A stretch of DNA of 64,000 nucleotides, from contig CAMKJU010000003.1 of NCBI GenBank assembly GCA_946413265.1, positions 9,087 through 73,086 on the forward strand. The letters are read 5' to 3'. This DNA is from an uncultured Lentisphaerota bacterium. GTDB taxonomy: Bacteria; Verrucomicrobiota; Kiritimatiellia; RFP12; UBA1067. The notes under the pieces were generated by a model, which saw only the letters and a list, made by a program, of their open reading frames with translations, did not search any database and was not told the origin of the DNA. The position numbers and the translations under genes are program-made. Shown piece after piece: positions 7,021-29,248 of the stretch. The first letter of the stretch is position 1. Each line of letters starts with the position of its first letter.

Positions 7021-7050
7021 AGAGGCTTGATGAGGATTGAAAAGAGTTGA
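7001..7050 (+). repeat. five tandem 10-bp phased repeats nnnGnTTGA at the prophage left end
   Basis: ggagGGTTGA tgggGGTTGA agagGCTTGA tgagGATTGA aaagAGTTGA, with exact 10-nt period, starting ~24 nt inside the junction. Confidence 0.9.
7026..7044 (+). repeat. left-end transposase-site-like inverted repeat (CTTGATGAGGATTGAAAAG)
   Basis: Matches the reverse complement of 40700..40717 (TTTGATTCACGATTGAAG) as TTGAT-n3/4-GATTGAA. Confidence 0.55.
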
Positions 7051-7327
7051 TTTTACTGGGGAAAATGGCGGATGTGGCGGGGAGAGGACTGGATTAGCGC
7101 GGGGAAAGCGCATTAGGGTTGCGCGGAAAGTTTTGGTTTGGGTTGGGGCGTGCTGGGTGTCGCGGTGGTGTGTAGGGCTATTTTGTTTGTCTCGCAGAAC
7201 CTGGTCAAGGCGTTCCAGATGCGATCGTGTGCGGCGCGTTCCATTGGCGCGGCTTCCATCGGTGGATCGCGCCACAGCGTTGCGAAAAGGGTTGTGTTGC
7301 GCTGCTCAAACGCAATCTCGATGCGCA

Positions 7328-8018: not shown

Positions 8019-8081
8019 TACCTATCTGCCTTTCTTGCGAGTTGGAGCTGTTTTTGGGGAAAGGCCGAGCGAGCTCGGCCA

Positions 8082-9665: not shown

Positions 9666-9681
9666 GGGGGCCTTTCTTTCT

Positions 9682-9711
9682 GGCCGATCACAGATCGGCC
9701 ATCAAATCTAT
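9682..9711 (-). repeat. hairpin boundary element, copy A (GGCCGATCACAGATCGGCC + ATCAAATCTAT)
   Basis: 8-bp stem GGCCGATC/GATCGGCC with a 3-nt loop. Lies between the TerL stop (9708) and the portal start (9665). Confidence 0.85.
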
Positions 9712-11360: not shown

Positions 11361-11373
11361 GGCGGGCGGCCTT

Positions 11374-12722: not shown

Positions 12723-12750
12723 GGCCGAACGCAGTTCGGCCATCAAATCT
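12723..12750 (-). repeat. hairpin boundary element, copy C (GGCCGAACGCAGTTCGGCC + ATCAAATCT)
   Basis: Same element as copies A and B, with a compensatory stem change (T:A to A:T). Lies in the divergent intergenic region 12635..12820. Confidence 0.8.
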
Positions 12751-14546: not shown

Positions 14547-14712
14547 CCTTGGCGCGGCACGGGATCATGCATACGGCGGGCGAACCATCATCCGGCATGT
14601 GGCCGCCTCGCCGGTGCCCGGCGGGCGTGCCGCGGTTCTAACTACACCGCCGGGCTAGACTCCTCGGCTCGCCCGCCGCCCCGGGCCCAATGTCGGACGG
14701 GCGGCAGTTCTA

Positions 14713-14748
14713 GTGAATAGCGAAGAGTGAATAGTGAATAGGTGAAAG
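14713..14748 (+). repeat. tandem heptamer array (GTGAATA/GTGAAAG)
   Basis: gtgaatagcgaagagtgaatagtgaataggtgaaag lies immediately upstream of the ATG at 14750. Confidence 0.85.
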
Positions 14749-17273: not shown

Positions 17274-17524
17274 TGAAACTGCGCAAGATTGACGTTCTGC
17301 TCGCAGAGCACAAGCCTCTGTCCGTAGAAGAAGGCAATGTCAAGAAGCTTGGCAGATATTACTACGAGGTCGAATGCCCGTTCTGCGGGAAAAAGAACCT
17401 TGTCTTCTTCAGGAACTTCTGGAAAGGCACGAGGTGCAAGAACAAGGACTGCCGCGCCATGTTCGACCGTTGCAACAGTGTGGCCTGGAGAGACATGGTG
17501 CCAGTGAGTGAGGCTAGAGCCTAA
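17270..17524 (+). CDS. zinc-ribbon protein
   Basis: CPFCGKKN...CKNKDC. Confidence 0.5.
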   Translation: MMKLRKIDVLLAEHKPLSVEEGNVKKLGRYYYEVECPFCGKKNLVFFRNFWKGTRCKNKDCRAMFDRCNSVAWRDMVPVSEARA

Positions 17525-17547
17525 ACAACAAGCGGACAACAGCAAGG
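17524..17547 (+). repeat. 24-nt motif copy (variant aACAaCAAGCGGACAACAGCAAGG) starting at the stop codon of 17270..17524
   Basis: Read directly from the sequence. Followed by AAAAGGAACCGAAG and the ATG at 17562. Confidence 0.85.
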
Positions 17548-17561
17548 AAAAGGAACCGAAG

Positions 17562-19058
17562 ATGAAACAGGAAAAGCCGCACAAGTTCTACGTCGGCGAG
17601 GGGTACGGCATCTGGGAGATGGACGGCGAAACCCACCGCCGCTTCCCCGACGTGTTCTACCGCGCGAAGCCCGGCGACTCGGCCGGCAAGTACACGATCG
17701 GCGACATGGCCGTCATGAACCAGCCGACAACCAAGAAGCGGTTCGGCATGTTCGTGATCGCGAACGTGGAGAGCGGCGACTTCGGCGGCACGGGGCTGAA
17801 GTACAAGCTCACGGTGCATCCCTACGGGACTCCGGAGGAGATCAGCGGACCGAAGCCCGCCGCCCCGATACAGCAAGCGGACAACAGCAAGGAAAAGGAA
17901 CCGAAGATGAACACTGCCAGTGGCGGACGGTGCAGATTCACAGATGAAAATGGATTCTGCACGAACGAAAACATGCAGGGCGGCGGATTCCGGTGCTTCG
18001 GCGCAGGGTGCGAATGCAGGGAGCCGATTCGCGGACCGAAGCCCGCCGCCCCGATACAGCAAGCGGACAACAGCAAGAAAGAACCGAAGATGAAAAGACC
18101 TACCTACAAGATGCAGCGCATCAAGCTCGCGGACTGCAAACCACACGCCGACGCGGAGGCCTACTCGGCCTCCACCGAGGACCGCGCCGCACTCGGCAAC
18201 TCAATCGAGGAGACCGGGGTGCTTTCGCCGATCGCCGTGGTGCCGGACGAGGACAGCAAGCGTACAACAGCAAGCAACGACGCCGAACCCCAGAAGTGGT
18301 TCGTGATCGACGGCATCGGGCGCATGAACGCCCTCATCGCCGCCGGCGAGACCGAGACCGACGCCCAGGTTTTCGACCTCGGCGATCTGAGCGTGGCCGA
18401 GTTCGTGGTGTGCAAGAACGCCATGATGCGCAAGGTCACAACCGGCACGCGCGTGATGGCATACCTGAAATGCCATGAACGCGAAGTACTGGCCGCTGCG
18501 GACCCGGAGAAGTACCAGGGCCGTAAAGAAAGCAAGTGGCGCAACAAGGTGGCTGCGGTTTCACGTGAAACCGCAGCCGACGAAAAGGGTTGGGGCGCGA
18601 AGGAGATAGCGGAGCGCATCGGGGTGTCGAAGAACGACGTGCTGGCGGGGATTGAGCTGCTGAAGGAGGTGAGCGGGGAGACAGAAAGCGTACAACAGCA
18701 AGGGAAGTACGTGCAGCTGGACCTCTTCGAGACGATGGACTCGGTGATGCACGGCGAGACGCCGATCAGGCGGTGGAAGGCGGCGGCGAGCGGCAAGGTG
18801 AGCAAGGTGGGCGGCAAGGCGGCCGCCGACTACGTGGGCATCGGCGCGCGCACGATGGTGAGCCTCATCGGGCTGTTCGAGAACTGGCAGACGGTCCCGA
18901 TGGAGAGCCGCGGGCCCATCGTCGAGCGGTTCAAGCTGGCGTTGGAGGCCGCGCCGGAGGATTTCAGGGCGGTGCTGGAGGATGTGGTTGGATCTCACGC
19001 AGAGGCGCAGAGAGGCAGAGAGCGCAGAGGGAAGTTCCGCAAAGGGACGCGGTGGTAG
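17562..19058 (+). CDS. ParB-like nuclease-domain protein with two stop-less N-terminal modules (candidate internal starts at 17907 and 18090)
   Basis: C-terminal part IKLADCKPHADAEAY...LGNSIEETGVLSPIAVVP...WFVIDGIGRMNALIAAG follows a ParB/Srx-like pattern. The modules are joined by the repeated GPKPAAPIQQADNSK(E)KEPKM linker. Confidence 0.65.
   Translation: MKQEKPHKFYVGEGYGIWEMDGETHRRFPDVFYRAKPGDSAGKYTIGDMAVMNQPTTKKRFGMFVIANVESGDFGGTGLKYKLTVHPYGTPEEISGPKPAAPIQQADNSKEKEPKMNTASGGRCRFTDENGFCTNENMQGGGFRCFGAGCECREPIRGPKPAAPIQQADNSKKEPKMKRPTYKMQRIKLADCKPHADAEAYSASTEDRAALGNSIEETGVLSPIAVVPDEDSKRTTASNDAEPQKWFVIDGIGRMNALIAAGETETDAQVFDLGDLSVAEFVVCKNAMMRKVTTGTRVMAYLKCHEREVLAAADPEKYQGRKESKWRNKVAAVSRETAADEKGWGAKEIAERIGVSKNDVLAGIELLKEVSGETESVQQQGKYVQLDLFETMDSVMHGETPIRRWKAAASGKVSKVGGKAAADYVGIGARTMVSLIGLFENWQTVPMESRGPIVERFKLALEAAPEDFRAVLEDVVGSHAEAQRGRERRGKFRKGTRW
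17847..17909 (+). repeat. extended ~60-nt unit (GGACCGAAGCCCGCCGCCCCGATACAGCAAGCGGACAACAGCAAGGAAAAGGAACCGAAGATG), copy 1
   Basis: Contains the 24-nt motif core at 17869..17892 plus an SD-like AAGGAAAAGGAA and an in-frame ATG. Confidence 0.9.
18033..18092 (+). repeat. extended ~60-nt unit, copy 2 (3-nt shorter)
   Basis: Motif core at 18055..18077. Ends in an ATG that starts the ParB-like module. Confidence 0.9.
18252..18274 (+). repeat. 24-nt motif copy, in CDS frame 1 (DSKRTTAS)
   Basis: Exact GACAGCAAGCGTACAACAGCAAG. Confidence 0.95.
18680..18703 (+). repeat. 24-nt motif copy (GACAGaAAGCGTACAACAGCAAGG), in CDS frame 2 (TESVQQQG)
   Basis: One mismatch to the consensus. Confidence 0.9.
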
Positions 19059-19082
19059 GACAGCAAGCGTACAACAGCAAGG
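19059..19082 (+). repeat. 24-nt motif copy forming the entire intergenic gap between the ParB-like stop and the transposase ATG
   Basis: TAG(19056-58)|GACAGCAAGCGTACAACAGCAAGG|ATG(19083). Confidence 0.95.
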
Positions 19083-20816
19083 ATGACCATGGAAAAGGCT
19101 GCGGAGAGATCGGCGAAGGTCGGCGAGGTGCGGCGGCTCGTGGCGGAGGGCGCGACGCTGGACGCCGCGCTGCTGGCGGCGGGGGTGAGCGAGACCACCT
19201 ACCGCCGCTGGGCGGCGAAATTCGACGCGGGCGGCGTTGCGGCGCTCTCGGACGCGCCGAAGAGCGGGCGGCCGCCGGTGGTGAAGCTCGACGAGGACGA
19301 GAAGAAGTGCCTGCGGCGCATCTACCTCCAGTCGAACCGGGCGGAGCGCAGCGGCTCGATGACGATGGCGGCGCGGATCGCGGCGCACGACCCGGCGACG
19401 TGCCTCCGGCCCGAGACGCGGGCGGCGATCCTCGCGGAGCGCTCCTCGAAGCACCACCTTCCGGTGGAGGTGCGCCGGGCGATGCGCGAGGTGTCGCCGG
19501 TGGCGGTGGCGCGTTACCGCGACCCGCGCGAGGGGCAGAACAACGGCATCTACGTGCCGGGGTGGCTGCGGCGCGACGAGGAGACGGGGCGGTTGCTGCT
19601 GCCGGGCGAGCGGCAGGTGTGGGACGACGCGAGCGTGAACGTGGCGGTGGCGGTGCCGTGGGCGGGGCGCGGGGACAAGGCGGGCGACCGCTGGGGATGG
19701 CGCGCGGCGCGCTACCAGCTGCTCGCCGGGATCGACTGCGCGACGGACTTCTTCTGCGGGTTCGGCTACGTGATGCGCACGAGCGACGGGTACCGGGCGT
19801 GCGACGTCGCGAACGTGATGCACGAGGTGTGGCGTCAGCAGGGGTACATGCCGAAGAAGGTGGTGCTGGAGGGCGGCAGCTGGCAGGCGAAGCCGACGAT
19901 GGACTTCCTGCGCACGGCGGGCGTGGGGGTGGTGGACGCCAAGGGCCGGCCGAACCAGAAGCTGGTGGAGAACTACTTCAACCGCCTCTGGACGGCGCTC
20001 TCGATCTTCCTTCCGGGCTACGGGCAGATCGGGCGGTACCGTGGCGAGATGCGCAAGGAGAACCTGAACTGGATGAAGGTGCTGAGCGGGAGCGCGGATC
20101 CGAGGAAATACTTCCCGACGCTGAAGACGTTTCTGGAGGCGCTGAACAAGGCCGTCGCCTACCTCAGGTGGGAGAAGGTGGAGAGCCGGATCTACGGGAC
20201 GTGGAGTCCGGAGGAGCTGTACCAGGGCGCGGCGGCGAACGGTCTGCCGCTCGTGGAGGGTCTGGAGCGGTACGCGATGCCGGTGGCGGCGCGCCGGACG
20301 CTGCGTCGCGGCGGGATGGTGTTCGTGACGGCGGAGACGCAGCTGGAGGGACTCAGGCACGAGTACGCCTTCGCGACGCGGGACGGCTGGAAGTACGACG
20401 GCGCGCCGGTGGTGGTGCGCTTCGACCCGGTGACGGCGGCGGCGCGGGGGGCGTCGATCGAGCTTGCCCAGGCGTGGCGCGACTTCCGCGCGGGGACGGT
20501 GATCGACGGCGCGGCGCCGTGCGTGAGCGCGCCTCCGGACTTCGTGAACGACGCGGGGCTTTGGGACCTGCGCGGCGCGGGCCGCCACGAGCAGCGGGCG
20601 AACCGCGCGGCGGTGCGCACGGTGGTGACGGCCTACGACACGCGCGGGCCGGTGCGGACGAGGTTCGAGGACGGCGAGGAGAAGGGCTGGGGGCTGCGCG
20701 GCGGCGTGCCCGCGGCGGCGGAGGCGCCGGAAGCGGCGGAGGAATGCGACAGCAAGCGTACGACAGCAAGGCTTGCGGCCCTGGAGGCGGAGGAGCGGAT
20801 GCTGGCCTACGCGTGA
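19083..20816 (+). CDS. Mu-like DDE transposase (MuA analogue)
   Basis: N-terminal HTH (GVSETTYRRWAAKFDAGGVAALSD). Candidate DDE residues in VWDDASVNV, LAGIDCATDFF and VVLEGGSWQ. Positioned upstream of the MuB-like ATPase. Confidence 0.8.
   Translation: MTMEKAAERSAKVGEVRRLVAEGATLDAALLAAGVSETTYRRWAAKFDAGGVAALSDAPKSGRPPVVKLDEDEKKCLRRIYLQSNRAERSGSMTMAARIAAHDPATCLRPETRAAILAERSSKHHLPVEVRRAMREVSPVAVARYRDPREGQNNGIYVPGWLRRDEETGRLLLPGERQVWDDASVNVAVAVPWAGRGDKAGDRWGWRAARYQLLAGIDCATDFFCGFGYVMRTSDGYRACDVANVMHEVWRQQGYMPKKVVLEGGSWQAKPTMDFLRTAGVGVVDAKGRPNQKLVENYFNRLWTALSIFLPGYGQIGRYRGEMRKENLNWMKVLSGSADPRKYFPTLKTFLEALNKAVAYLRWEKVESRIYGTWSPEELYQGAAANGLPLVEGLERYAMPVAARRTLRRGGMVFVTAETQLEGLRHEYAFATRDGWKYDGAPVVVRFDPVTAAARGASIELAQAWRDFRAGTVIDGAAPCVSAPPDFVNDAGLWDLRGAGRHEQRANRAAVRTVVTAYDTRGPVRTRFEDGEEKGWGLRGGVPAAAEAPEAAEECDSKRTTARLAALEAEERMLAYA
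20748..20771 (+). repeat. 24-nt motif copy in the transposase 3' region (CDSKRTTAR)
   Basis: GACAGCAAGCGTACGACAGCAAGG. Confidence 0.95.
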
Positions 20817-20890
20817 CCATTTCCCCGCGCGGAGAGGCTAGGACGCTCCGCGCGGGGGATTCAACAACCAACAAACCAAAGGAGCACAAG

Positions 20891-21070
20891 ATGCACACAG
20901 CAAGCAGAGAATGGGCGGACCGGGTGGCCGCCCGGAACGCGGTGGAGACCGCGAAGGCGCGCGCCGACGAGGCGCGAAAAAACGAGGCGCTTGCCGCGCA
21001 GGGCTTTCTGCCCCTCACCTACGGGGAGCAGCTGATCCCGCTGAGCGCAGCCGGGAAGGAGGCGGAGTGA
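20891..21070 (+). CDS. small hypothetical protein (59 aa)
   Basis: AAAGGAG RBS with an A/C-rich leader. Stop overlaps the next start. Confidence 0.45.
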   Translation: MHTASREWADRVAARNAVETAKARADEARKNEALAAQGFLPLTYGEQLIPLSAAGKEAE

Positions 21071-21408
21071 TGAAGAGAACGAAAGATGACGGTAACCGCC
21101 TTTCACAGTTGCTCGGTTCAATCAAGCGAGCCAGGACAACCGTGTTGGGCAGTACGGCCCAAATAGTCAAACTAGGTGAATGCGAGGATTCCCAGGCCAT
21201 TACTGCATTGAACAGAGCCGCCGTAAAATGCCTGCATCAGTCATGCTACTGGCTTGATCAGGCCGTGGATACACTTGAGCATTCGATCAAGAGAGTCAGA
21301 GAGACGGAAGATGCGGACAGCAAGCGTACTACAGCAAGGGTGCAGCCGCTTTCGCCGGAGGCGGAGCTTGCGGCCACGGTGGCGCGGCAGAAGGGAGAGA
21401 ATGCATGA
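21070..21408 (+). CDS. hypothetical early protein
   Basis: ATG overlaps the upstream TGA. Contains a motif copy read as DSKRTTAR. Confidence 0.5.
   Translation: MKRTKDDGNRLSQLLGSIKRARTTVLGSTAQIVKLGECEDSQAITALNRAAVKCLHQSCYWLDQAVDTLEHSIKRVRETEDADSKRTTARVQPLSPEAELAATVARQKGENA
21316..21339 (+). repeat. 24-nt motif copy (GACAGCAAGCGTACTACAGCAAGG)
   Basis: Read directly from the sequence. Confidence 0.9.
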
Positions 21409-21491
21409 GCGGGGACGAGATCATATTCTTCGTGTGGCTGGCCACGTGGCTGCCGTTCGCGATCGCCTACTTCATCAGCGAGGCGAAGTGA
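21405..21491 (+). CDS. tiny membrane peptide (28 aa)
   Basis: IIFFVWLATWLPFAIAYFI. Overlaps the upstream stop. Confidence 0.3.
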   Translation: MSGDEIIFFVWLATWLPFAIAYFISEAK

Positions 21492-21512
21492 CAGCAAGAA
21501 GAAGGAGCAAGC
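21490..21512 (+). repeat. decayed motif copy (GACAGCAAGaagaaggAGCAAGc) filling the gap before the MuB-like ATG
   Basis: Both outer ACAGCAAG/AGCAAG halves are retained. The upstream stop TGA overlaps the first bases, as at 27789. Confidence 0.6.
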
Positions 21513-22463
21513 ATGAAGAACCAAGTGGAAAACGAACTGGTGGAGACAGCCGCGAAGATCGCGGCGTGGGGCGAGTCGCACGGCATGAGCCGCGCGCAGC
21601 TCGTGCGCAACTTCACCGACCTCGGCAGCGAGAAGAGCTTCCGCGACATCTCGGCCGGGAACCTGGAGGGCTACAACGCGGAGAACCAGCTCACGAAGTA
21701 CCGGGCGGTGTACGCCACGATGGAGGAGCTGGCGAACCAGGGCGGCGAGGAGCGCATCTACGACGACCTCGGCACCGTGGTGAAGATCCGCAGGGCGTTC
21801 CTGGGCGTGGTGAAGGCCACGGGCACGAATCGCGTGCTGATCGTGCAGGGCGAAAGCGGCGTGGGGAAGACCACCGCCGTGGGCCTCCTGCGCGGCAAGT
21901 ACGGCACGGGGCGCATCAGCTACGTGGAGGCGAGCGACGTGTGGGCGGACTCGCCCAACGCCTTCCTCGGCGCGATCCTGCGCGCGCTCGGCGTCACGGA
22001 GCTGCCGGCTGGGCGCGTGCAGCGTCTGGAGGAGGTGCAGGCGCGGCTTGCGATCTCGCGGCGGTGTCTCGTGATCGACGAGGCGCACCACCTCGGCCCG
22101 CACTGCCTCAACACGGTGAAGACGCTGGTGAACACGACGCCGGGGGAGTTCATCCTGGTGGCGATCCCGACCTTGTGGAACAAGCTGCAGGCGCACGCCT
22201 ACCAGGAGGCGAAGCAGATCGCGACGAACCGTCTCTCGGAGCGCGTGAAGCTCACGCTCGACGAGGCGGACATCCGCACGTACCTCTCGAAGCGGTTCAA
22301 GGACGCCCAGCCGGCGGAGCTTAAGGTTGCGGCGAAGATCATCCGCCCCAACGCGCTCCTCGCGGGCAACTACGCCTTCGTGCGCGACGTGGCGCGCGAG
22401 CTCGCCTCGCTCGAGGCCGACGCGGTGAGCCGCGCGGTGACGGCGGTGACGGGGAGAAGGTAG
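21513..22463 (+). CDS. MuB-like AAA+ DNA transposition ATPase
   Basis: Walker A GESGVGKTT and Walker B LVIDEAHHL. Downstream of the transposase. Confidence 0.8.
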   Translation: MKNQVENELVETAAKIAAWGESHGMSRAQLVRNFTDLGSEKSFRDISAGNLEGYNAENQLTKYRAVYATMEELANQGGEERIYDDLGTVVKIRRAFLGVVKATGTNRVLIVQGESGVGKTTAVGLLRGKYGTGRISYVEASDVWADSPNAFLGAILRALGVTELPAGRVQRLEEVQARLAISRRCLVIDEAHHLGPHCLNTVKTLVNTTPGEFILVAIPTLWNKLQAHAYQEAKQIATNRLSERVKLTLDEADIRTYLSKRFKDAQPAELKVAAKIIRPNALLAGNYAFVRDVARELASLEADAVSRAVTAVTGRR

Positions 22464-22503
22464 TGGAGTGTAAAATGTAAAGTGTAAAGTGTAAAGTGAA
22501 AGG
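22463..22503 (+). repeat. tandem heptamer array (GTGTAAA)n
   Basis: gtggagtgtaaaatgtaaagtgtaaagtgtaaagtgaaagg lies between the MuB-like stop and the DUF3164 RBS. Confidence 0.9.
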
Positions 22504-22512
22504 ACAAACACA

Positions 22513-23199
22513 ATGGCAAAGCAAGTGACGACGATGCGCGACTCGAACGGGAACGACGTCCCGCTCAAGTACGTGAGCAAGTACGACAAGGCGAAGGACA
22601 AGGCCGTGCGCAAGGTGCTGGCCCGGTTCCTCCGCGCGCGGGAGCTGCTGGAGGGCGTGGTCGCCGAGACCATCGCCGAGCTGGAAGCGCTCGCGGACAC
22701 GAAGGAGAAGCTTGGCGCGAAGGGAAACTTCTCGGCGCGCAGCTTCGACGGCCTCATCCAGGTGAGCATCCGGCAGCAGTACAACATCTTCCTCGACGAG
22801 CGCGTGGTGAAGGCGCGCGAGCTGATGCTCGGCTACGTGGAGAAGGTGCTGGCGAAGGTGGGCGGCAACGACGCGCAGGCGCTGCGGCTCATCGTGGCGG
22901 AGGCGTTCAAGGCGAACGCGCAGGGCTTCCTCTCGACGGGGAAGATCATGTCGCTGCTCCGGATGGAGATCGACAACGCCGACTGGCGCGAGGCGAAGAG
23001 GATCCTCCAGGATTCGATCAAGCCGCAGAAGGGAAAGCGGTATCTCGTGTGCGAGCGGCGCGCGAGCACGCAGGCGGAGTTCCGCCCGGTGCGGCTGGAC
23101 ATCGCGGATTGCTGGCCGGAGGAGGATGAGAGTGTAAAGTGTAAAATGGAAAGTGTAAAATGCGAAGAGCAGAAAGGAGGTGATCAAGATGCCGGTTAA
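22513..23199 (+). CDS. DUF3164-like Mu-family protein
   Basis: MRDSNGNDVP...GAKGNFSARSFDGLIQVSIRQQYNIFLDERV is colinear with the DUF3164 pattern. Confidence 0.65.
   Translation: MAKQVTTMRDSNGNDVPLKYVSKYDKAKDKAVRKVLARFLRARELLEGVVAETIAELEALADTKEKLGAKGNFSARSFDGLIQVSIRQQYNIFLDERVVKARELMLGYVEKVLAKVGGNDAQALRLIVAEAFKANAQGFLSTGKIMSLLRMEIDNADWREAKRILQDSIKPQKGKRYLVCERRASTQAEFRPVRLDIADCWPEEDESVKCKMESVKCEEQKGGDQDAG
23132..23162 (+). repeat. second (GTGTAAA)n array, inside the 3' end of the DUF3164-like CDS
   Basis: gtgtaaagtgtaaaatggaaagtgtaaaatg is translated as SVKCKMESVKC. Confidence 0.85.
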
Positions 23200-23386
23200 G
23201 TGGACAAGGCCGAAGAAGGCCGAAGACAGCAAGCGCACGACAGCAAGTGCGCCGAAGCCCGAGAAGCCGAAGGGCGACAAGCCCCAGGCCGAAGAGCTGA
23301 AGCCCGAGAAGCCGAAGGGCGGCAAGCCGAAAGGCGGCAAGCCGAAAGGCGACGATAAGCCCAATGGCAAGAAGGAGGCCAAGTGA
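23189..23386 (+). CDS. small lysine-rich protein with KPKG repeats
   Basis: AAAGGAGG lies 8 nt upstream. PEKPKGDKP...PEKPKGGKPKGGKPKGDDKP. Confidence 0.5.
   Translation: MPVKWTRPKKAEDSKRTTASAPKPEKPKGDKPQAEELKPEKPKGGKPKGGKPKGDDKPNGKKEAK
23225..23247 (+). repeat. 24-nt motif copy (GACAGCAAGCGCACGACAGCAAG)
   Basis: Two mismatches to the consensus. Read as DSKRTTAS. Confidence 0.85.
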
Positions 23387-23985
23387 TGGCGAACGCCGTT
23401 GACAGGGCCGTGCGCGCGCAGGGCGGGGCCGTGGTCAAGCCGCACCAGGTGAAGGCCATGGTCCTCGCCGCGCGCCGCGCGTACAAGGTGCAGTCGGACG
23501 CCGGCCTCGTCGATGACGGGGTCGACTTCGACAGCTGGCGGCGGGCGACGCTCCACGACGTGGTGGGTGCCGCCGCGCCGGATTCCTTCCGGGCCGTGAC
23601 GCAGCGCGACTACGCCGCCGTGCTCGGCTACTTCAGCGAGCTCGCCGGAAATTCCGGAAAATCCGGAGATTCCGGAAAATCCGGGATCGCCGACGAACAG
23701 CGGCGGGCGCAGTGGTCGCTGGGACTTGTGGAGAGAGAAACGGCGGATGCCTTCGGCGGGCGCGAGGGGGCGCGGCGGTACGCCGACGCGCTCTTCGCGC
23801 GGATCCACAAGACCGACCGATACGCCGCCACGGCGAAGCAGACATGGGCGGTCATTTTCACCCTGCGGAACCGTGCCGCGAAAATCCGCTCAAAAACGGC
23901 CCTAGAAGCGCGGGGCGAGGCGGGGGTACACTCGCCGCTCCCCGCCGCTTCCAAGCGTTTTCCCGCGTTTTCCCGCGGCTTCTAG
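23383..23985 (+). CDS. GemA (Mu gp16)-like protein
   Basis: Called from position in the Mu order and the pattern ...DFDSWRRATLHDVVG...SFRAVTQRDYAAVLGYF. Contains an in-frame 9-nt x4 repeat (GNSGKSGDSGKSG). Confidence 0.4.
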   Translation: MMANAVDRAVRAQGGAVVKPHQVKAMVLAARRAYKVQSDAGLVDDGVDFDSWRRATLHDVVGAAAPDSFRAVTQRDYAAVLGYFSELAGNSGKSGDSGKSGIADEQRRAQWSLGLVERETADAFGGREGARRYADALFARIHKTDRYAATAKQTWAVIFTLRNRAAKIRSKTALEARGEAGVHSPLPAASKRFPAFSRGF

Positions 23986-24013
23986 GCGATTCCACGGTTG
24001 GAGGCGTGCGGCT

Positions 24014-24556
24014 ATGGTCGAAAACATGGTGCAGATGGACCTTTTCGGGGGTGAAAGGCCGGGCAAGCCCGGCCATCCGGACAACCTGGCGGGGTCGCAG
24101 ATTCCGCCGCCGCTTGCCGTGGAGCCGGAGCCGAACATGGTGCGCGTGGCGCCGGGGCGGCACGCCTGGGTGCCGAAGGACGCGGCGACGCCGCCGGACG
24201 CCTACGTGATGTGCCGGTGGTCGAAGCAGGAGGACGGCACCTACGCGCCGGTGCCGGTGGCGGGGCGGTACGTGCGGCTTGATTCCAGGACGGCCGCCCT
24301 TCTCGGCTTCCCGGCGCGCGCCGGCGAGGACGGCAACGAGCGCTGCCGCTACGACACGATCCTCCGCCTCGGGCGAGCGGGGTTCGTGGACGTGGTGCGC
24401 GTGGCGCCGAACACGATCCTCCTCGACCTCGACAGCTGGTACCGCCACCTCGCCGACTGCATGGACAACCCCGACCGCTGGAACGAGGGCGGAGAGGACC
24501 GCGAGACGTACCTTCAGGCAAACGGCCTCGGCGGGTGGAGGCGGTATGTCGAATGA
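24014..24556 (+). CDS. hypothetical phage protein
   Basis: Long ORF with normal composition in the operon. Confidence 0.5.
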   Translation: MVENMVQMDLFGGERPGKPGHPDNLAGSQIPPPLAVEPEPNMVRVAPGRHAWVPKDAATPPDAYVMCRWSKQEDGTYAPVPVAGRYVRLDSRTAALLGFPARAGEDGNERCRYDTILRLGRAGFVDVVRVAPNTILLDLDSWYRHLADCMDNPDRWNEGGEDRETYLQANGLGGWRRYVE

Positions 24557-24723
24557 ATTGCAATTGGCGGCCTGGGCCATGGAAAATCAGGAAATGGGGA
24601 AGCCGAGGGCGTGCGCACGCCGCAGGCCGTGAATCCGTGGCGCAAGCGGGGACGCGCTCGAATACTACCAGCAAACCGTGGCGCTCCGGAAAGACGGAGA
24701 ATTTGCTATACTAGGAGACACCG

Positions 24724-25980
24724 ATGACAGCGAACCTGACAATAGAGACATTCCCGAACGAGGCGGCCGCGGACTACATCCACGGCAAGGCCGTCGCGGA
24801 TCCAACGCACTTCGGCAACCTTCCGCCGCAGCTGAAGCAGCGCGCGTTCACGGTGGCGGGCATCGAGCAGCTGGACGCGCTGCAGCGCATCCGCGACGCG
24901 GTGGCGAAGCTTCCGGAGGGCGCGAGCTGGGACGAGGCGAAGAAGGAGATCGCCGCCGAGATCTCGCCGTTCGTGGGCGGCGACGACAAGGCGGCGAAGG
25001 CCCGGGCGAACTTCATGCTTCGCACGCACGGCTTCCAGGCGTATGCGGTTGCGCGGCACCAGCAGCAGATGGAGGACATCGAGATTTTTCCGTACTGGAA
25101 GTACGAGACGGTGGGCGATTCGCGGGTGCGTCCCGGACACGCCGCGCTCGACGGGAAGATACTAAGGGCCGACGATGACTGGTGGAAGACCCACTACCCG
25201 CCATGGGACTGGGGATGCCGGTGCATCGTGATCGAACTGACCGAACTGGACGCGAAGAAGCAGGGCATTACGCCTCCAGAGGAAATGCCCACGCCGGGAC
25301 GGAGCGAGAGCTTTGCGTTCGATCCAACGAACGCGGCGATCGACCTCGACAGATACCGCAAGGACCCAAGGTTTGAGGACGACGCAGACTGGCGGCTCAA
25401 ATTCGTGACGCCCGCGAAGAACGTGACCGTGCAGACCGACGACGGCGGCACCATGTCGATGTGGGATCTCTGCCTGAAGACGCAGACGGCCCGCGTTTCC
25501 AGTAACATCGCAGGAATGAGCCGGACGGACTCGGTCGAATACTTCTCGGTAATATCCCGCAAGACCGGCGTGACAGAGGCGACGATCCAGGGCACGGCGG
25601 AGGAGGTGAATTTCAACGTTGACAAGCTCAAGTACGGTGACTACATCACAATACACACGCACCTTAAGGGCGGCAATATCCCTTCAGCTGCCGACATGGC
25701 GACATATCGGACGCGGTTCGACGGCGAAGACGCGAACACGCCCTCATGGGACTACGTCGTGGCCGTTCCAAAGGCAGCAGGTATTGTGCCGCGCGCCAGG
25801 CTCATCGTGACGAAGGGGCGCATCCCAGACACAGACATGAAGGTACTCGAGCAGATCAACCGGCGTCTTGCGGCGGCCAGGGAGAGCGATCGGATGGCGA
25901 TACTCAAAGAATACACCGACAAGCTCGACGAGCTTGAAAGCAAGGGGCTCATCGAATACAAGGAAACGAAAGGAGTGTGA
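24724..25980 (+). CDS. MuF-like minor head protein fused to a C-terminal JAB/JAMM metalloprotease-like domain
   Basis: MuF/SPP1-gp7 core at aa 95-175 (YETVGDSRVRPGHAALDGKIL...WDWGCRC). C-terminal IHTHLKGGNIPSAAD matches HxHx7Sx2D exactly (nt 25654..25695), with an upstream Glu in SVEYF. Confidence 0.75.
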   Translation: MTANLTIETFPNEAAADYIHGKAVADPTHFGNLPPQLKQRAFTVAGIEQLDALQRIRDAVAKLPEGASWDEAKKEIAAEISPFVGGDDKAAKARANFMLRTHGFQAYAVARHQQQMEDIEIFPYWKYETVGDSRVRPGHAALDGKILRADDDWWKTHYPPWDWGCRCIVIELTELDAKKQGITPPEEMPTPGRSESFAFDPTNAAIDLDRYRKDPRFEDDADWRLKFVTPAKNVTVQTDDGGTMSMWDLCLKTQTARVSSNIAGMSRTDSVEYFSVISRKTGVTEATIQGTAEEVNFNVDKLKYGDYITIHTHLKGGNIPSAADMATYRTRFDGEDANTPSWDYVVAVPKAAGIVPRARLIVTKGRIPDTDMKVLEQINRRLAAARESDRMAILKEYTDKLDELESKGLIEYKETKGV

Positions 25981-25982
25981 CC

Positions 25983-26183
25983 ATGACAAGGGAAGAGGCC
26001 AAAGAACAGCTGGTGGGGCTTATGGCGTACAACTACGACATGACTGGCTCCGAGCCCGACTATGCGACGGTGTGGAACCGCATACAGGATCTGACGGACT
26101 TCATCTGGTACCATCAGCCGGATCCCGGCGAATGGGAGTTGCCGGAAGGGTACAAGGCGTTTTTGGAGAGGGCCAGGGCATGA
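25983..26183 (+). CDS. hypothetical head-module protein
   Basis: AAAGGAG RBS. Tightly packed between the MuF and gpG-like genes. Confidence 0.5.
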   Translation: MTREEAKEQLVGLMAYNYDMTGSEPDYATVWNRIQDLTDFIWYHQPDPGEWELPEGYKAFLERARA

Positions 26184-26632
26184 TCACGGTCACGATAGAC
26201 ACCTCGAACCTTACGTGGAAGCTCGCGGACTTCCCGGAAGCGCTTGCACGGGCGCAGCGGAACGCGCTGAAGGTCATCGGCAACGTCGTAAAGAACCACA
26301 CGACGGAGGCATTCAGGGATCCCAACTACAGGCCGTCGCCGTGGGCTCCGCGCAAGGACAAAAAGGCGACGCATCAGCTGCTGATCAAGAGCGGAGACCT
26401 TCGGCGAAACTTCCGATCCGTGGTGACGGGGCCGGACACCGTGGTGGTGGGCACGAAGGTGAAGTATGCAGGCTACCACCAGTTCGGCACGAAGCACATG
26501 CCGGCGCGGCCTTTCTTCCCGATCGATGAACACGGGCAGCTCACGCCGACGGTGATGCGCGACATAAAAGACAATGTCGAGGCAATCTACAAAAAGGAGA
26601 TCGACAAGGTATTCGGGAACGGGGGCGGCTGA
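26180..26632 (+). CDS. Mu gpG-like virion morphogenesis protein
   Basis: LLIKSGDLRRNF...VVGTKVKYAGYHQFGTKHMPARPFF is typical of this family. Confidence 0.75.
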   Translation: MITVTIDTSNLTWKLADFPEALARAQRNALKVIGNVVKNHTTEAFRDPNYRPSPWAPRKDKKATHQLLIKSGDLRRNFRSVVTGPDTVVVGTKVKYAGYHQFGTKHMPARPFFPIDEHGQLTPTVMRDIKDNVEAIYKKEIDKVFGNGGG

Positions 26633-26634
26633 GA

Positions 26635-26658
26635 GACAGCAAGCGTACGACAGCAAGG
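26635..26658 (+). repeat. 24-nt motif copy 2 nt after the gpG-like stop
   Basis: GACAGCAAGCGTACGACAGCAAGG. Confidence 0.95.
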
Positions 26659-26701
26659 CTAACTGATGATATAAACACTTCCTTTTTCAGTGCCGCACAG
26701 T

Positions 26702-26733
26702 CCGCACGGGCGCAAGCCCGCGCGGCGTTTTTT
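26702..26733 (+). terminator. rho-independent terminator
   Basis: CCGCACGGGC-GCAA-GCCCGCGCGG (10-bp stem, 1 mismatch) followed by CGTTTTTTAT. Confidence 0.7.
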
Positions 26734-26752
26734 ATATAAACTGTGCGCCGTT

Positions 26753-27790
26753 ATGGGCAAGCCAGACAAAGTGATACTTCTTCGCACAACCGGCGTCGCC
26801 GTGAGCCTTTCGGCTGACGCGGCGAAGCTGCCGCGCCGGATCAAGGTGCTGAACTGGGGCGACAACCCGAACTGCCACGGGAAGCGCGTGAACGTGGGCG
26901 CGCTCTTCGTGAAGTGCCTGAACGCCGACACCTATCCCTACCGCAAGGTGGCGCTCGACTTCGAGCACAACACCTTCCCCGGCACGGCGGCGTACAAGGA
27001 GTCGAAGGAGCCGCGTCCCGTCGCGGGCTTCGGCACGATCGAGGCCGTCGAGGGCGACGGCGTGTACATCACGATGTCGAGCTGGACTCCGGACGGCGAG
27101 AAGATGGCGGCGAACTACGCCGACGTCTCGGCCGGGGCCGTGACCGACAAGGAAGGCAACCTCGTGGCCGTGGCGAGCGTGGCGCTGTGCCGCGCCGGCG
27201 CGGTGGACGGCATGGATTTCGTGGAGGCGCCGCTGAGTGGCGGTATCTCTTCCGCGCTGAGCGGAATCATCAACAACCAGGAAGGCGGGCTGAAGCCCGC
27301 CGCTCCGATACAGAAAGGAAATGCAATGGACTACAAGGCATTGCTATTGAAGCTGCTGGGGCTTGGCGAGGACGCCACGGACGAGGCCATTCAGGCCGCG
27401 CTCGATGCGGCCGGCAAGAAGCCCACGCAGGAGGAACAGGACGCGGCACTATCGGCTGCGGTGAAGACTGCTGTCGCGGAGGCCGTGAAGCCGATCGAGG
27501 AGAAGGTGGCCGCGCTTTCGGCGGCAGCCGTCGCCCACGAGAAGGCCGACCTCATCGCCGAGGCCGCCCGCGAGGGCAAGGTGATCGCGCTCGGCGCGGA
27601 CGCCATCGGGAAGATCACGGTCGAAGACCTGAAAGCCACGATCGCGAAGACGCCCGTGACGGTGCCGCTCAACGCGAAGACGCCGACGAACATGAAGGAG
27701 AATGCCGCCGAGGGCGATGTGCCCGAGGAGCTGCGCCAGATCGCGCTCAACTGCGGGGTGAGCCCGGATATCTTCAAAGCGGGGAAGTGA
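26753..27790 (+). CDS. Mu gpI-like head protease with nested scaffold (internal start at 27326)
   Basis: The RIKVLNWGDNPN...VALDFEHN pattern matches the Mu-like prophage I protein. The C-terminal Ala/Glu-rich helical part begins at MDYKALLLKLLGL, after an SD-like AAAGGAAA. Confidence 0.8.
   Translation: MGKPDKVILLRTTGVAVSLSADAAKLPRRIKVLNWGDNPNCHGKRVNVGALFVKCLNADTYPYRKVALDFEHNTFPGTAAYKESKEPRPVAGFGTIEAVEGDGVYITMSSWTPDGEKMAANYADVSAGAVTDKEGNLVAVASVALCRAGAVDGMDFVEAPLSGGISSALSGIINNQEGGLKPAAPIQKGNAMDYKALLLKLLGLGEDATDEAIQAALDAAGKKPTQEEQDAALSAAVKTAVAEAVKPIEEKVAALSAAAVAHEKADLIAEAAREGKVIALGADAIGKITVEDLKATIAKTPVTVPLNAKTPTNMKENAAEGDVPEELRQIALNCGVSPDIFKAGK
27292..27313 (+). repeat. copy of the 5' half of the extended unit (GAAGCCCGCCGCTCCGATACAG) before the nested scaffold start
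   Basis: Matches 17852..17873 and 18038..18059. Translated as KPAAPIQ. Confidence 0.8.
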
Positions 27791-27812
27791 CAGCAAGCGT
27801 ACAACAGCAAGG
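27789..27812 (+). repeat. 24-nt motif copy overlapping the protease stop, followed by AAAGGCAAAACATG
   Basis: tGACAGCAAGCGTACAACAGCAAGGaaaggcaaaacATG(27824). Confidence 0.95.
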
Positions 27813-27823
27813 AAAGGCAAAAC

Positions 27824-28264
27824 ATGAAAAAACTGATTGCAATGGCCGCGATGGCGGCAATGGCGCTCGCGGCATTCGCGGGCGAGCACGACACGCCGCA
27901 GGTGAGCGGCGACTACGCCCAGCTCGCGGCGGGCGAGGCGGTCTACGCCGGCAACATCGCAGCCGTGGGCACGAACGGCTGCGCCTACGCGGTGAACACC
28001 TCCGCCGTTGGCGGCACGCTCACCGTGTGCGGGGTGTTCCTGCACAACGCGGCGAAAGGCGAGAACGTGACGGTGAAGCGCGGGGGATTCATCCTCGAGA
28101 ACGCGACCGGCGCCGGCGCGATCGCGAAGAAGGACATCGGCGCGACGGCCTACTCCGTGGCGACGAACCCCTGGACCGTGACCAAGACGAGCGGCACGAA
28201 GACCGTCGGCAAGGTGGCCGACGTGCGCGACGACGGCAAGGTCGTGGTGGTGGTTGGCCGGTAG
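27824..28264 (+). CDS. DUF2190-like head protein (decoration or auxiliary) with signal-peptide-like N-terminus
   Basis: Lies between the scaffold and the major capsid. Gly/Ala/Val-rich beta pattern. N-terminus MKKLIAMAAMAAMALAAFAG. Confidence 0.5.
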   Translation: MKKLIAMAAMAAMALAAFAGEHDTPQVSGDYAQLAAGEAVYAGNIAAVGTNGCAYAVNTSAVGGTLTVCGVFLHNAAKGENVTVKRGGFILENATGAGAIAKKDIGATAYSVATNPWTVTKTSGTKTVGKVADVRDDGKVVVVVGR

Positions 28265-28273
28265 CGGCGAGGA

Positions 28274-28297
28274 AACAGCAAGCGTACAACAGCAAGG
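28274..28297 (+). repeat. 24-nt motif copy in the major-capsid leader
   Basis: aACAGCAAGCGTACAACAGCAAGGaaaggcaaagacATG(28310). Confidence 0.95.
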
Positions 28298-28309
28298 AAA
28301 GGCAAAGAC

Positions 28310-29248
28310 ATGAACATCACTGCAGCAACCCTGGACGCGCTCTTCAAGACGTTCCAGACCAAATTCACCGAGGCGCAGAAGGCCGCGCAGACGCGCGTGA
28401 CGCCGAACGACCTCCTTCCCGAGGACATCGCCCTCGCCTTCACCGGCGCGGGCTCCGCCACGCAGCACAGCTGGCTCGAGCAGCTGCACGGCATCCACGA
28501 GTGGGTGGGCGAGCGCGTCTTGAACAACGCGAAGCTCGGCAAGCTCACGGTCGTGAACCGCGACTTCGAGAACACGATCAAGGTCTCGCGCAACGAGATC
28601 GAGGACGACCAGTACGGCGTCTACGCGCCGCTGGTGGGCATGATGGGCGCGGACGCCGAGAACCTGTGGAAGAAGCTCGCGATCGAAGCGCTCCTCGGGA
28701 ACGGCGAGTGGGCGGACGGCAACCCGTTCTTCTGCTCGGGCCGCGTGCTCGGGGAGAGCACGTTCACGAACGCGGTGACGACCTCCTTCAGCAAGGCCGC
28801 CGTCGAGGCCGCCATCGCGGCGATGCGCGGCTGGAAGCTCTACGGCGGCGAGCCGGGCGAGATCCGCCCGGACGTGCTCCTCGTGGGCCCGTCGCTCGAG
28901 GCGGCGGCCAAACTGATCTGCGAAGCCGACCTCGTGGCGGACAGCGGCACGACGGTGAGCAACGTGAGCCCGGCGAAGGCGCTGAAGGTGCGCGTGTCGC
29001 AGTCGCTCGTGGGAGACCACGCGAACGAGTGGTACGTGCTCGGCGACAAGAACGGCGTGAAGGCCGTGGGCATCCAGAAGCGCAAGCTGCCGGTGCTGAC
29101 GCGCAAGGACCGCGACGAGGACACGAACGTGTTCATGACGAACGACTTCCTCTACGGCGTCCACGCGCGCGGCGAGGGCTTCCTGACTCTTCCGTTCCTC
29201 GCCTACAAGGGCGGCGCGGCGGCCGTGGCAGCCTGGGAGGAGAAGTAA
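28310..29248 (+). CDS. Mu gpT-like major capsid protein
   Basis: HSWLEQLHGIHEWVGERV...VVNRDFENTIKVSRNEIEDDQYGVY is characteristic of the gpT family. Confidence 0.9.
   Translation: MNITAATLDALFKTFQTKFTEAQKAAQTRVTPNDLLPEDIALAFTGAGSATQHSWLEQLHGIHEWVGERVLNNAKLGKLTVVNRDFENTIKVSRNEIEDDQYGVYAPLVGMMGADAENLWKKLAIEALLGNGEWADGNPFFCSGRVLGESTFTNAVTTSFSKAAVEAAIAAMRGWKLYGGEPGEIRPDVLLVGPSLEAAAKLICEADLVADSGTTVSNVSPAKALKVRVSQSLVGDHANEWYVLGDKNGVKAVGIQKRKLPVLTRKDRDEDTNVFMTNDFLYGVHARGEGFLTLPFLAYKGGAAAVAAWEEK

Follow-up and report, generated by a model that had tools for sequence, protein, structure and literature searches.

A 23-nt motif at gene junctions of a Mu-like prophage is very probably a dispersed, strand-specific DNA cassette and not a translation signal

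The 64,000-nt stretch of DNA analyzed here (hereafter, the window) comes from an uncultured Lentisphaerota bacterium (GTDB lineage Bacteria; Verrucomicrobiota; Kiritimatiellia; RFP12; UBA1067; NCBI GenBank assembly GCA_946413265.1, contig CAMKJU010000003.1, positions 9,087 to 73,086) and carries, at 17.5-29.2 kb, part of a Mu-like prophage identified by Pfam. A 23-nt motif, M1, recurs at the gene junctions of this prophage, where a preliminary description had taken it for an intercistronic device that assists translation of the next gene. Our high-confidence conclusion is that M1 does not serve as a translation signal but is a dispersed cassette with strand specificity. The fuller reading, which we favor with more reserve, is that M1 is probably a very short dispersed repeat of rumen Kiritimatiellae and Mu-like prophages whose spread takes place at the level of DNA and which persists only at permissive sites. 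Its companions in a repertoire of interchangeable mini-cassettes are four hairpin families (H1-H4), the repeat M2, and heptamer arrays. As M1 resides on one strand, both in gaps and at in-frame sites within proteins, it behaves as tiny mobile DNA rather than as a translation signal.

The consensus of M1 is (G/A)A-CAGCAAG-CGTAC-(A/G)A-CAGCAAG. Allowing up to 3 mismatches to CAGCAAGCGKACAACAGCAAGG, the window holds 17 matches (16 on the + strand and one on the - strand), against none in 100 dinucleotide-preserving shuffles. The logo of 228 copies, none of them from the window (R-A-CAGCAAGCG-T/g-AC-A/g-ACAGCAAG), has sharp 23-nt limits, beyond which the flanks are G-rich and without conservation. 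Internally, the motif repeats itself directly (GACAGCAAG-CGTAC-RACAGCAAG), with 1.6 units of a 14-nt period, and arrays of this period longer than M1 itself are present in three other sequences (L088, L099, and L103). Read in all six frames, M1 contains no stop codon and is therefore able to reside in frame. A single copy folds at -0.5 kcal/mol (z = -0.46), i.e., it is unstructured, and inverted pairs of M1 fold at -14.8 kcal/mol. Identity among M1 copies is 96-97% where that of the flanks is 81-89%, a measure that carries ascertainment bias.

About half of the copies in the window lie within open reading frames (ORFs), where three frames are used and one copy is antisense in the portal gene; 6 of the 17 precede start codons. 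The ORF-internal copies in the range covered by the preliminary description, which left them out, are those at 17869, 18055, 18252, 18680, 20748, 21316, and 23225, again in three frames. The individual copies, some of which are followed by a Shine-Dalgarno sequence (SD), are:

1887..1910, + strand: M1, in frame (TASVQQQ) in the giant C10-peptidase ORF 1531-7020; the first of three tandem copies
1941..1964, + strand: M1, in frame (TASVQQQ) in the C10-peptidase ORF 1531-7020
1971..1994, + strand: M1, in frame (TASVQQQ) in the C10-peptidase ORF 1531-7020
8361..8384, + strand: M1, antisense within the Mu portal gene (8082-9665, - strand), read as SCCRTLAV
17524..17547, + strand: CAACAAG variant of M1, beginning on the final base of TAA 17522-17524, with SD and ATG 17562 downstream
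17847..17892, + strand: H2 remnant GGACCGAAGCCCGCCGCCCCGATA followed by M1 (17869), an in-frame linker GPKPAAPIQQADNSK, then an internal SD and ATG 17907
18033..18078, + strand: H2 remnant followed by M1 (18055), in frame, before an SD and the ParB start ATG 18090
18252..18275, + strand: M1 in ParB loop 1 (DSKRTTAS), which in homologues is empty (DEDGRGW) or holds other repeat-derived inserts
18680..18703, + strand: M1 in ParB loop 2 (TESVQQQG), a hypervariable slot among homologues
19059..19082, + strand: M1, which fills the gap behind ParB stop TAG 19056-19058, with AAGG 6 nt before ATG 19089
20748..20771, + strand: M1 in the C-terminal tail of the transposase (DSKRTTAR)
21316..21339, + strand: M1 inside ORF 20911-21408, at a mosaic breakpoint
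21490..21512, + strand: decayed or half M1, GACAGCAAG-aagaaggaGCAAG-c, between TGA 21489-21491 and the MuB-like ATPase start, ATG 21513
23225..23248, + strand: M1 variant in a small Lys/Pro-rich ORF
26635..26658, + strand: M1, 2 nt past TGA 26630-26632, followed by a terminator-like hairpin
27789..27812, + strand: M1, overlapping TGA 27788-27790, followed by AAAGGCAAAACATG / GAAAGGCAAAAC and ATG 27824
28274..28297, + strand: M1, after TAG 28262-28264, followed by GAAAGGCAAAGAC and ATG 28310 (gpT capsid)
44602..44625, - strand: inverted M1 within a signal peptide (TCCRTLAV); the protein is secreted, of host origin, and starts at ATG 44533

Around the 21316 copy, the window and the relatives L023 and L080 are unrelated upstream and homologous downstream. 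Directly after the 23225 copy, 23251-23353 holds 6.9 copies of a 15-nt repeat, GCCGAAGGGCGACAA, which encodes a small protein rich in Lys, Pro, and Gly.

M1 shares its sites with the companion cassettes. We compared about 14 slots in eight phages, i.e., those of the window, L080, L023+L048, L015, L083, and three further relatives obtained via ParB homologues (L111, L112, and L113). The hairpin families are H1, (G)GTAG-GCCGAAC-GCAG-TTCGGCC-ATCAAATCT; H2, GCGGGC-TGAA-GCCCGC-CGCTCCGATA; H3, GCGGGC-GCAGAG-GCCCGC-CACCCC; and H4, CGCGGG-ACAGAG-CCCGCG-AATCAGGAC. These are imperfect palindromes of 26-31 nt with a tail of about 9 nt, they fold at -7 to -12.5 kcal/mol, and H1 copies at junctions carry GTAG at the 5' end. 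M2 is a second non-palindromic repeat with a 14-nt period. Besides M1, the window holds four H1 or H1-like cassettes, three H2, one H3-like cassette, and two heptamer arrays, which, other than the H2 remnants given above, are:

8063..8090, + strand: H1-like, GGCCGAGC-GAGC-TCGGCC-ATCAATGCT, overlapping the stop of the - strand portal gene (read from the sequence)
8416..8442, + strand: H3-like, GCGGCC-ACGGAG-GGCCGC-CACCCCGAT, in the C-terminal tail of the portal
9682..9709, + strand: H1, GGCCGATC-ACAG-ATCGGCC-ATCAAATCT, filling the gap between terminase stop and portal start in the - arm
11309..11336, + strand: H1 in the - strand arm; L111 and L112 have nothing here
12723..12750, + strand: H1; the slot holds H2 in L111, H3 in L112, and H4 in L113
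22470..22500, + strand: (GTAAAGT)n heptamer array at the MuB/DUF3164 junction; H1 in L023, L111, and L113
23131..23159, + strand: second heptamer array, (AGTGTAA)n, at the end of the DUF3164 gene
27284..27310, + strand: H2, GGCGGGC-TGAA-GCCCGCC-GCTCCGATA, read in frame with the protease ORF, just before an SD and the nested ATG 27326

With regard to the heptamers, (GTAAAGT)n is found twice at prophage junctions (22470-22500 and 23131-23159) and (TAGTGAA)n once (14711-14746), and the cassette slots of relatives contain (GGGGAAC)n, (AACTCAC)n, and (AGAACGC)n.

The cassettes occupy fixed permissive slots, namely stop-to-SD gaps, C-terminal tails, inter-domain linkers right before internal starts, and surface loops, and any slot may be empty or hold any cassette family. 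The slot before the capsid gene (28274) contains M1 in the window, L048, and L083, H1 in L015 and L111, H2 in L112, and other repeats in L113. At 27789, M1 is found in the window, L048, L083, and L112, H1 in L113, and another hairpin in L015. The slot in the transposase C-terminal tail (20748) is filled by M1 in the window, L080, and L023, by H1 in L111, by H3 in L112, and by H4 in L113, and that between ParB and transposase genes (19059) by M1 in the window and another hairpin in L113, while in L111 it is empty (TAAAATG). M1 lies at 23225 in the window and L015, H3 in L112, and H2 in L113, with L023 and L111 empty. Relatives without M1 at 26635 (L048 and L015) have H2-like or H1-like cassettes instead. 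The slot before ParB (18033) combines an H2 remnant and M1 in the window, H3 and M1 in L112, and H2 and a decayed M1 in L113, and the slot before ATG 27326 holds H2 in the window, H3 in L112, H4 in L113, and nothing in L111. Whatever the filler, GAAAGG-N5-7-ATG, i.e., the SD and start codon, is kept downstream in every slot. The same exchange is seen within proteins, where the two ParB loops of 120 homologues contain at least eight insert types, with the same types recurring in both loops. The empty state reads DEDG[RK][GK]W, and the inserts include M1, M2 (GSPGTARPT), (GGGGAAC)n (GNGERGTGNG), and five further types.

The polarity of the cassettes follows the G-rich DNA strand, irrespective of gene direction. 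The counts on the + and - strands are 21/0 in the window phage, 10/0 in L111, 26/0 in L112, and 14/1 in L113, and for M1 alone 13/0 in the window and 7/0 in L112. The prophage consists of two divergent arms, with the portal gene and an adjoining large ORF, probably the terminase, on the - strand (8082-11855) and the ParB, transposase, MuB, head, and tail genes on the + strand (17270-39374). As L111, L112, and L113 share this layout, it is the natural architecture of the phage group. Even where transcription runs the other way, in the - arm, the cassettes keep to the + strand, which makes them antisense to its genes. This arm contains at least 13 cassette copies, all on the other strand to the genes:

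Window: 8361, 8416, 9682, 11309, and 12723
L111: 2610, 2695, and 5592
L112: 2728, 5673, and 8267
L113: 201, 1574, and 4503

GC skew is positive across both prophage arms, whereas AT skew flips with gene direction. The host copies of M1 obey a similar rule, as 73 unpaired intergenic copies lie on the locally G-rich strand vs. 8 on the other, and where both neighboring genes are on the other strand, 9 of 10 copies still lie on the G-rich strand.

M1 is widespread beyond the window. In a scan of one genome per species, exact M1 was found in more than 103 stretches (a lower bound) from 31 assemblies, 29 of which are metagenome-assembled genomes (MAGs) of rumen or gut Kiritimatiellae or of the Planctomycetes-Verrucomicrobia-Chlamydiae (PVC) group; by our arithmetic, about one match would be expected by chance in this 596-Gb collection. 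Four MAGs carry at least 23-45 copies each in the fetched pieces alone. Host genes homologous to those of the window are only ~65-75% identical and M1 is nearly invariant. Among the matches listed, only L004 (a 2.2-kb contig of a Desulfovibrio MAG) and L040 (a Chryseobacterium MAG) fall outside Kiritimatiellae/PVC bins. In L004, other G-rich repeats surround the match, and the contig was probably mis-binned, and L040, with a single copy in AT-rich DNA, is consistent with the one or so matches expected by chance.

A crude gene call based on GC at third codon positions places 131 of 248 M1 copies inside ORFs, 110 of them sense and 21 antisense. Sense copies use all frames and are read as TASVQQQ (57), QQAYNSK (31), or DSKRTTAR/S (27). 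Unrelated enzymes carry them, and so do giant secreted proteins, close to whose N-termini they stand in tandem. Most antisense copies code for hydrophobic signal-peptide cores (e.g., MKxxK-TCCCTLAV-TLC). Such cores, TCCCTLAV or LLLYACC, are encoded by the reverse complement of M1 and occur in many unrelated secreted host proteins (L037, L057, L072, L074, L077, L095, L096, and 44533-44640 of the window). Around 30 M1 copies are followed by an inverted copy of the CAACAAG variant, which gives a 22-bp hairpin, often right after a stop codon and with G.U/G.T wobbles on the M1-sense strand only. M1 is also fused, in frame within host enzymes, to hairpins with a 5' GTAG (e.g., GGTAGGGCGGTCGCCCCGCGACCGCC) that resemble repetitive extragenic palindromes (REPs). 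Between the orthologues L008 and L089, one 27-nt in-frame REP hairpin is precisely present or absent, and a loop of a host GH127 enzyme is either empty or short, filled with an (AACTCAC)n array, or filled with M1 in relatives that are 90% identical. GTAG REP hairpins were seen in frame directly 3' of M1 (TASVQQQ-D/G-GRAVAPRPP) in L016, L022, L046, L078, L053, L008, and L019, a location in coding sequence that is unusual for elements defined as extragenic.

How, then, should M1 at the junctions be read? The stops, motif starts, and ATGs that the preliminary description gave for six junctions (stops at 17522, 19056, 21489, 26630, 27788, and 28262) are all present, with a decayed copy at 21489. 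However, the transposase start that it used, ATG 19083, has to be replaced, as the conserved start in all relatives is ATG 19089 (ATGGAAAAG). The motif was said to span the distance from the stop to the next ribosome-binding site (RBS) or ATG, which does not hold at 26635, where a terminator-like hairpin with U6 follows and there is no RBS. The term cassette is apt insofar as M1 is a discrete 23-nt unit in true stop-to-start slots that other cassettes refill in relatives; a dedicated intercistronic device it is not, with around half of the window copies and the 131 of 248 overall located inside ORFs. The exact filling of gaps arises because the genes of the phage are compact and 23 nt of room exist only between a stop and the next SD. 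The proposal that the 3' end of M1 serves as the SD is plausible at ATG 19089, where AAGG lies 6 nt upstream, but elsewhere GAAAGG is a separate downstream element, which L015, L111, L112, and L113 keep beside slots that are empty or filled by an unrelated hairpin. Likewise, M1 is indeed unstructured, as the idea of a ribosome landing pad would have it, but the other cassettes that fill the slots form stable hairpins, so that lack of structure is no common property of the slots. A specific partner of M1, also suggested earlier, is likely, given how little the motif varies between genomes in which homologous genes have diverged to ~65-75% identity. The comparison of gaps in related Mu-like phages that had been called for returned shared junction slots and a shared GAAAGG, but the filler is M1, another cassette, or nothing. 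A translational role is not borne out, given that orientation tracks the DNA strand and not transcription and that the motif is a repeat of host genomes rather than phage-specific. As slots can be empty or hold hairpins, M1 is dispensable for translation. The best reading is that M1 at junctions is a passenger that may donate a TGA stop (a T followed by GACAGCAAG; the 5' GA of M1 readily completes TGA, as at 21489 and 27788) or AAGG, and that it is not required for translation.

The translation model in full, in which M1 would be a landing pad bound by a factor in the mRNA and would boost or couple the next cistron, is thus one that we regard as hardly credible. The six junction copies of the window point the same way as the genes and stop 6-14 nt short of the start codons, M1 is perfect before two genes of L083 although the flanks are 10-17% diverged, and the start-associated sequences (SAS) of Cluster K mycobacteriophages offer a precedent (PMC3203893); the lack of structure and the AAGG before ATG 19089 fit as well. 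Half of the copies lie within ORFs in three frames, some of them antisense, hundreds more lie within host genes, the strand rule is valid in the oppositely transcribed arm, the 26635 copy precedes a terminator, and the SD stands apart from M1 and persists beside an empty slot or a stable hairpin, all of which speaks against the model. A related idea, with a quite small probability, is that the cassettes punctuate RNA as stabilizers of mRNA, processing sites, or attenuators, as has been described for REPs between the cistrons of E. coli operons, with M1 as the site of an RNA-binding protein. This would account for cassettes at cistron boundaries and upstream of nested starts, for the stability of the H hairpins, and for the G.U wobbles that inverted M1 pairs show on the M1-sense strand only, and REPs are cited for a part in mRNA turnover (PMC3479197). 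Yet M1 alone has no structure, slots can be empty, the tails of the hairpin cassettes keep the polarity of the DNA strand and not of the transcript, and copies read in frame within signal peptides and enzymes would be meaningless as punctuation.

Three further alternatives operate on DNA, as does the spread of M1 as a dispersed repeat that we favor. The possibility that the cassettes are functional strand-specific signals of the chromosome and of Mu-type replication (Chi- or KOPS-like polar sequences, signals for priming or primosome assembly on the lagging-strand template, or self-markers against a host nuclease), with phages copying the markers of their host, is unlikely. In its favor, the one-strand orientation tracks the G-rich strand in host and phage alike, the phages share repeat families with Kiritimatiellae genomes, M1 is dense in the phage, and it is more conserved than its flanks. 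It would, however, require one function for at least six unrelated sequences, when known polar signals are only 5-8 nt long; slots are empty in L111 without obvious consequence, and for the many in-frame protein copies a neutral or selfish reading is simpler. We also give a very low probability to M1 being a DNA uptake signal, comparable to the DNA uptake sequence (DUS) of Neisseria or the uptake signal sequence (USS) of Pasteurellaceae, that accumulates by biased uptake and recombination wherever it is tolerated. A sharply bounded oligomer that is lineage-wide and identical across species, that occupies all reading frames with a bias to tolerable peptides, and that forms hairpins from inverted pairs just past stop codons does recall such signals. 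The strand asymmetry (73:8 for intergenic copies, one strand only in phages) does not, as uptake sequences are not known to show any; moreover, unrelated cassette families fill the same slots, M1 is enriched in the prophage, and 23 nt is too long for an origin by point mutation when the differences seen are indels and replacements. Equally improbable are portable recombination linkers at module boundaries that aid exchange among phages and host surface-protein genes. Such linkers would explain why the 21316 M1 and the cassettes before ParB stand exactly at the limits of similarity between the window, L023, and L080, why the small modules before ParB are joined by repeated H2 and M1, and why ParB loops mix insert types combinatorially, but 23 nt is little sequence for homologous recombination, many copies lie away from breakpoints, and neither the strand rule nor the dispersal in unrelated host genes would follow. 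Linkage to module boundaries is more likely a consequence of repeat spread than its cause.

If M1 is a dispersed DNA repeat, a strand-specific process at the DNA level would spread and exchange the cassettes. The likeliest substrate would be single-stranded DNA (ssDNA) of the lagging-strand template, which we take the G-rich strand to be, and the candidate enzyme is an HUH/Y1 protein (a REP-associated tyrosine transposase (RAYT) or an IS200/IS605-like transposase) or one comparable to it. This HUH/ssDNA mechanism is a tentative proposal by analogy, and we think it less probable than the dispersal itself. TnpA_REP binds REP hairpins with a 5' GTAG as ssDNA, cleaves and recombines them and their linkers, and the lagging-strand template has been proposed as its substrate (PMC3333891). 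A phage of the Mu type replicates while integrated and would be exposed to the same process as its host. A resident cassette would itself make the slot a substrate, with excision leaving it empty and exchange bringing in another family, and slots would be reused for this reason. Selection would then keep only those insertions that are harmless to genes. More doubtful still is the boldest version, that M1 and its companions form an undescribed class of strand-specific mobile cassettes of ~23-30 nt with their own machinery for ssDNA integration and exchange, which would possibly act at Mu-type replication forks and insert or swap cassettes in fixed slots, including in-frame sites of enzymes, signal peptides, and structural genes of the phage.

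Several observations sit poorly with the dispersal reading or with this mechanism. The boundaries between slots filled with M1 and empty ones are untidy, with additional or substituted bases and no clean footprint. As M1 neither forms a hairpin nor contains GTAG, it is not a canonical REP substrate, and no HUH/Y1 or other candidate enzyme was found in the 0.83 Mb searched; a tblastn search of this DNA with RAYT and IS608 TnpA queries gave no match in a sample far too small to be informative. The signal-peptide copies of M1 break the strand rule by 10 to 5, and the rule in the minus arm rests mainly on hairpin cassettes, as the phage copies of M1 there comprise only 8361. Local GC skew, of which several values are small, is only a proxy for replication direction. 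The 11 kb of early and head genes of the phage contain 12 M1 copies vs. 4 at two loci in ~27 kb of flanking host DNA, a density that is not explained by passive colonization. Finally, the near-perfect conservation of M1 could equally reflect function or homogenization.

Other candidate identities were considered and discarded. A phage-polymerase promoter (a T7-like 23-mer) is ruled out by the in-frame, tandem, and host-gene copies, and a CRISPR-like array by irregular spacing (54 and 30 nt) and the dispersed copies. MuA-type end-binding sites were considered because of their 22-bp size, the cluster at 1887-1994, and the inverted 44602 copy; these copies, however, are in frame in host genes, and L111 and L113 are almost without M1. 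An adapter or assembly artifact is incompatible with 31 independent assemblies, sequence variants, and preserved frames. Of the known RNA families in Rfam, none is matched in the window at its gathering score, and no rRNA gene is present in its 64 kb. A scan of 17-29.5 kb for sigma-70 promoters and terminators gave no feature associated with M1, and the literature search found the motif sequence in no paper and nothing on Kiritimatiellae repeats.

The closest parallels are other short repeats. REPs and the bacterial interspersed mosaic elements (BIMEs) built from them, with the transposase TnpA_REP (RAYT), have been described (PMC3333891; PMC3116915). M1 and its companions likewise are high-copy, dispersed, short repeats of one lineage that are exchangeable at a locus; the hairpins sharing their slots are 26-31-nt imperfect palindromes, several with a 5' GTAG (H1 and the host GGTAGGGCGGTCGCCCCGCGACCGCC); M1 beside or between hairpins resembles the L, S, l, and r linker motifs of BIMEs; and a ssDNA mechanism would yield a strand bias. 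A palindrome of 20-40 nt, as in REPs, is found in H1-H4, the host REP-like cassettes, and M1 inverted pairs but not in M1 itself, and a 5' GTAG is present in H1 junction copies and host hairpins next to M1, whereas M1 has a central GTAC. Furthermore, M1 is not extragenic (131/248 inside ORFs), most copies are solitary, and M1 and the hairpins populate a transposable phage.

Cyanobacterial small dispersed repeats (SDRs) are reportedly 21-27 nt long, and their description is said to be that of Elhai et al., 2008 (Genome Res 18:1484). SDRs and short tandemly repeated repetitive sequences (STRRs) resemble our cassettes in a size of ~23 nt, below that of MITEs (miniature transposable elements bounded by inverted repeats), in the existence of several families per lineage, in presence or absence between relatives, and in tandem heptamers alongside, here (GTAAAGT)n, (GGGGAAC)n, and (AACTCAC)n. 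M1 has the SDR size and dispersal (23 nt; at least 23-45 copies in four MAGs), with several families, and is present or absent at orthologous positions (19059, 23225, 26635, ParB loops, and the GH127 loop), although with boundaries that are not clean. It differs in belonging to another phylum, in its unrelated sequence, and in being often in frame, in prophages, and strongly strand-specific, traits that SDRs are not known to share. The SDR work is cited in PMC3116915 and PMC5861425.

In-frame insertion into unrelated genes, adding a tolerated peptide, is shared with Rickettsia palindromic elements (RPEs), but RPEs are palindromic and, at ~100-150 bp, five times longer (PMC10969869), whereas M1 is non-palindromic, has 23 nt, and adds only 7-8 residues. 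SAS and extended SAS (ESAS) of Cluster K and stoperators of Cluster A are also asymmetric, one-orientation repeats with many copies per phage in short stop/start gaps (PMC3203893; PMC9283540). SAS contain an SD, lie 3-7 bp from starts, and are essentially absent from host genomes (PMC3203893), but only 6 of 17 window copies of M1 precede starts, GAAAGG lies downstream, and M1 occurs in 31 assemblies (more than 103 stretches), mostly in non-phage host genes. Stoperators are repressor sites (PMC9283540); their orientation is tied to transcription and they are phage-specific, whereas minus-arm cassettes stay on the + strand and M1 is host-wide. Against the equal orientations of DUS and USS stand the 73:8 ratio of intergenic copies and the 13/0 and 7/0 counts of the window and L112.

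Lineage-specific over-represented oligomers of 5-12 nt that occur in genes in all frames, i.e., DUS/USS, Chi, and KOPS, are a further point of comparison. M1 inverted pairs after genes are reminiscent of DUS, and a replication-linked strand polarity of Chi and KOPS. Unlike these, M1 has 23 nt, varies by indel and replacement, and shares sites with unrelated cassettes.

The M1 cassette phenomenon appears to be undescribed in the Kiritimatiellae lineage, and it combines three unusual traits, namely frequent residence in frame within proteins, fixed phage slots shared across families, and a strict DNA-strand rule. It also corrects a tempting misreading, as a conserved motif that fills gaps looks regulatory and is here an interchangeable passenger. 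Because a transposable phage offers many filled and empty slots, the way in which repeats smaller than MITEs (REPs and SDRs) move becomes directly testable. Shared cassette repertoires may help to assign metagenomic phages to hosts, and the in-frame turnover of cassettes is a source of variation in protein loops and linkers. If the cassettes did possess their own ssDNA machinery, protein loops and gene junctions would be continually remodeled, and host and phage would share a recognizable repertoire of repeats.

With regard to the prophage, the genes assigned by Pfam in this part of the window are:

19083-20816, + strand: helix-turn-helix (HTH) transposase
21513-22463, + strand: MuB-like AAA ATPase
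22513-23199, + strand: DUF3164 protein
24724-25980, + strand: Mu F
26690-27790, + strand: Mu protease I
28310-29248, + strand: gpT capsid

A transposase-based scan of IMG/VR found no relatives of the prophage, and M1 is present in only 7 viral contigs of that database, with a single copy in each. Just past the stop of the C10-peptidase gene, at 7000-7130, there is a 10/20-nt tandem repeat (GAGGGTTGAT five times) followed by GCGCGGRGAAAG twice (7100-7125), which may be the left prophage end with transposase-binding sites. Inverted repeats between the presumed ends amount to a 12-mer (42205) with no convincing right-hand partner.

The terminator-like hairpin 3' of the 26635 M1, at ~26694-26735 and ending in U6, is kept in all relatives. 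The region 26694-26745 is flanked by two copies of GATATAAAC / TATATAAAC and could be a boundary of the late operon or a promoter, and the true protease start may be ATG 26744. Within the protease I ORF (26690-27790), ATG 27326 (MDYK...) is an in-frame internal start with its own SD and a cassette slot just upstream, an arrangement that resembles the nested I/Z protease-scaffold pair of Mu.

A comparable nesting is seen upstream of the transposase gene. The region 17508-19058 is a single unbroken ORF whose three modules begin at ATG 17562 (a small protein), ATG 17907 (Cys-rich), and ATG 18090 (ParB-like). Duplicated H2 and M1 linkers (GPKPAAPIQQADNSK) join them, and behind each linker stand an SD and an ATG of its own. 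A fusion as well as stand-alone products seem possible. Among database homologues, many are annotated as 430-440-aa fusions and others as 302-322-aa proteins.

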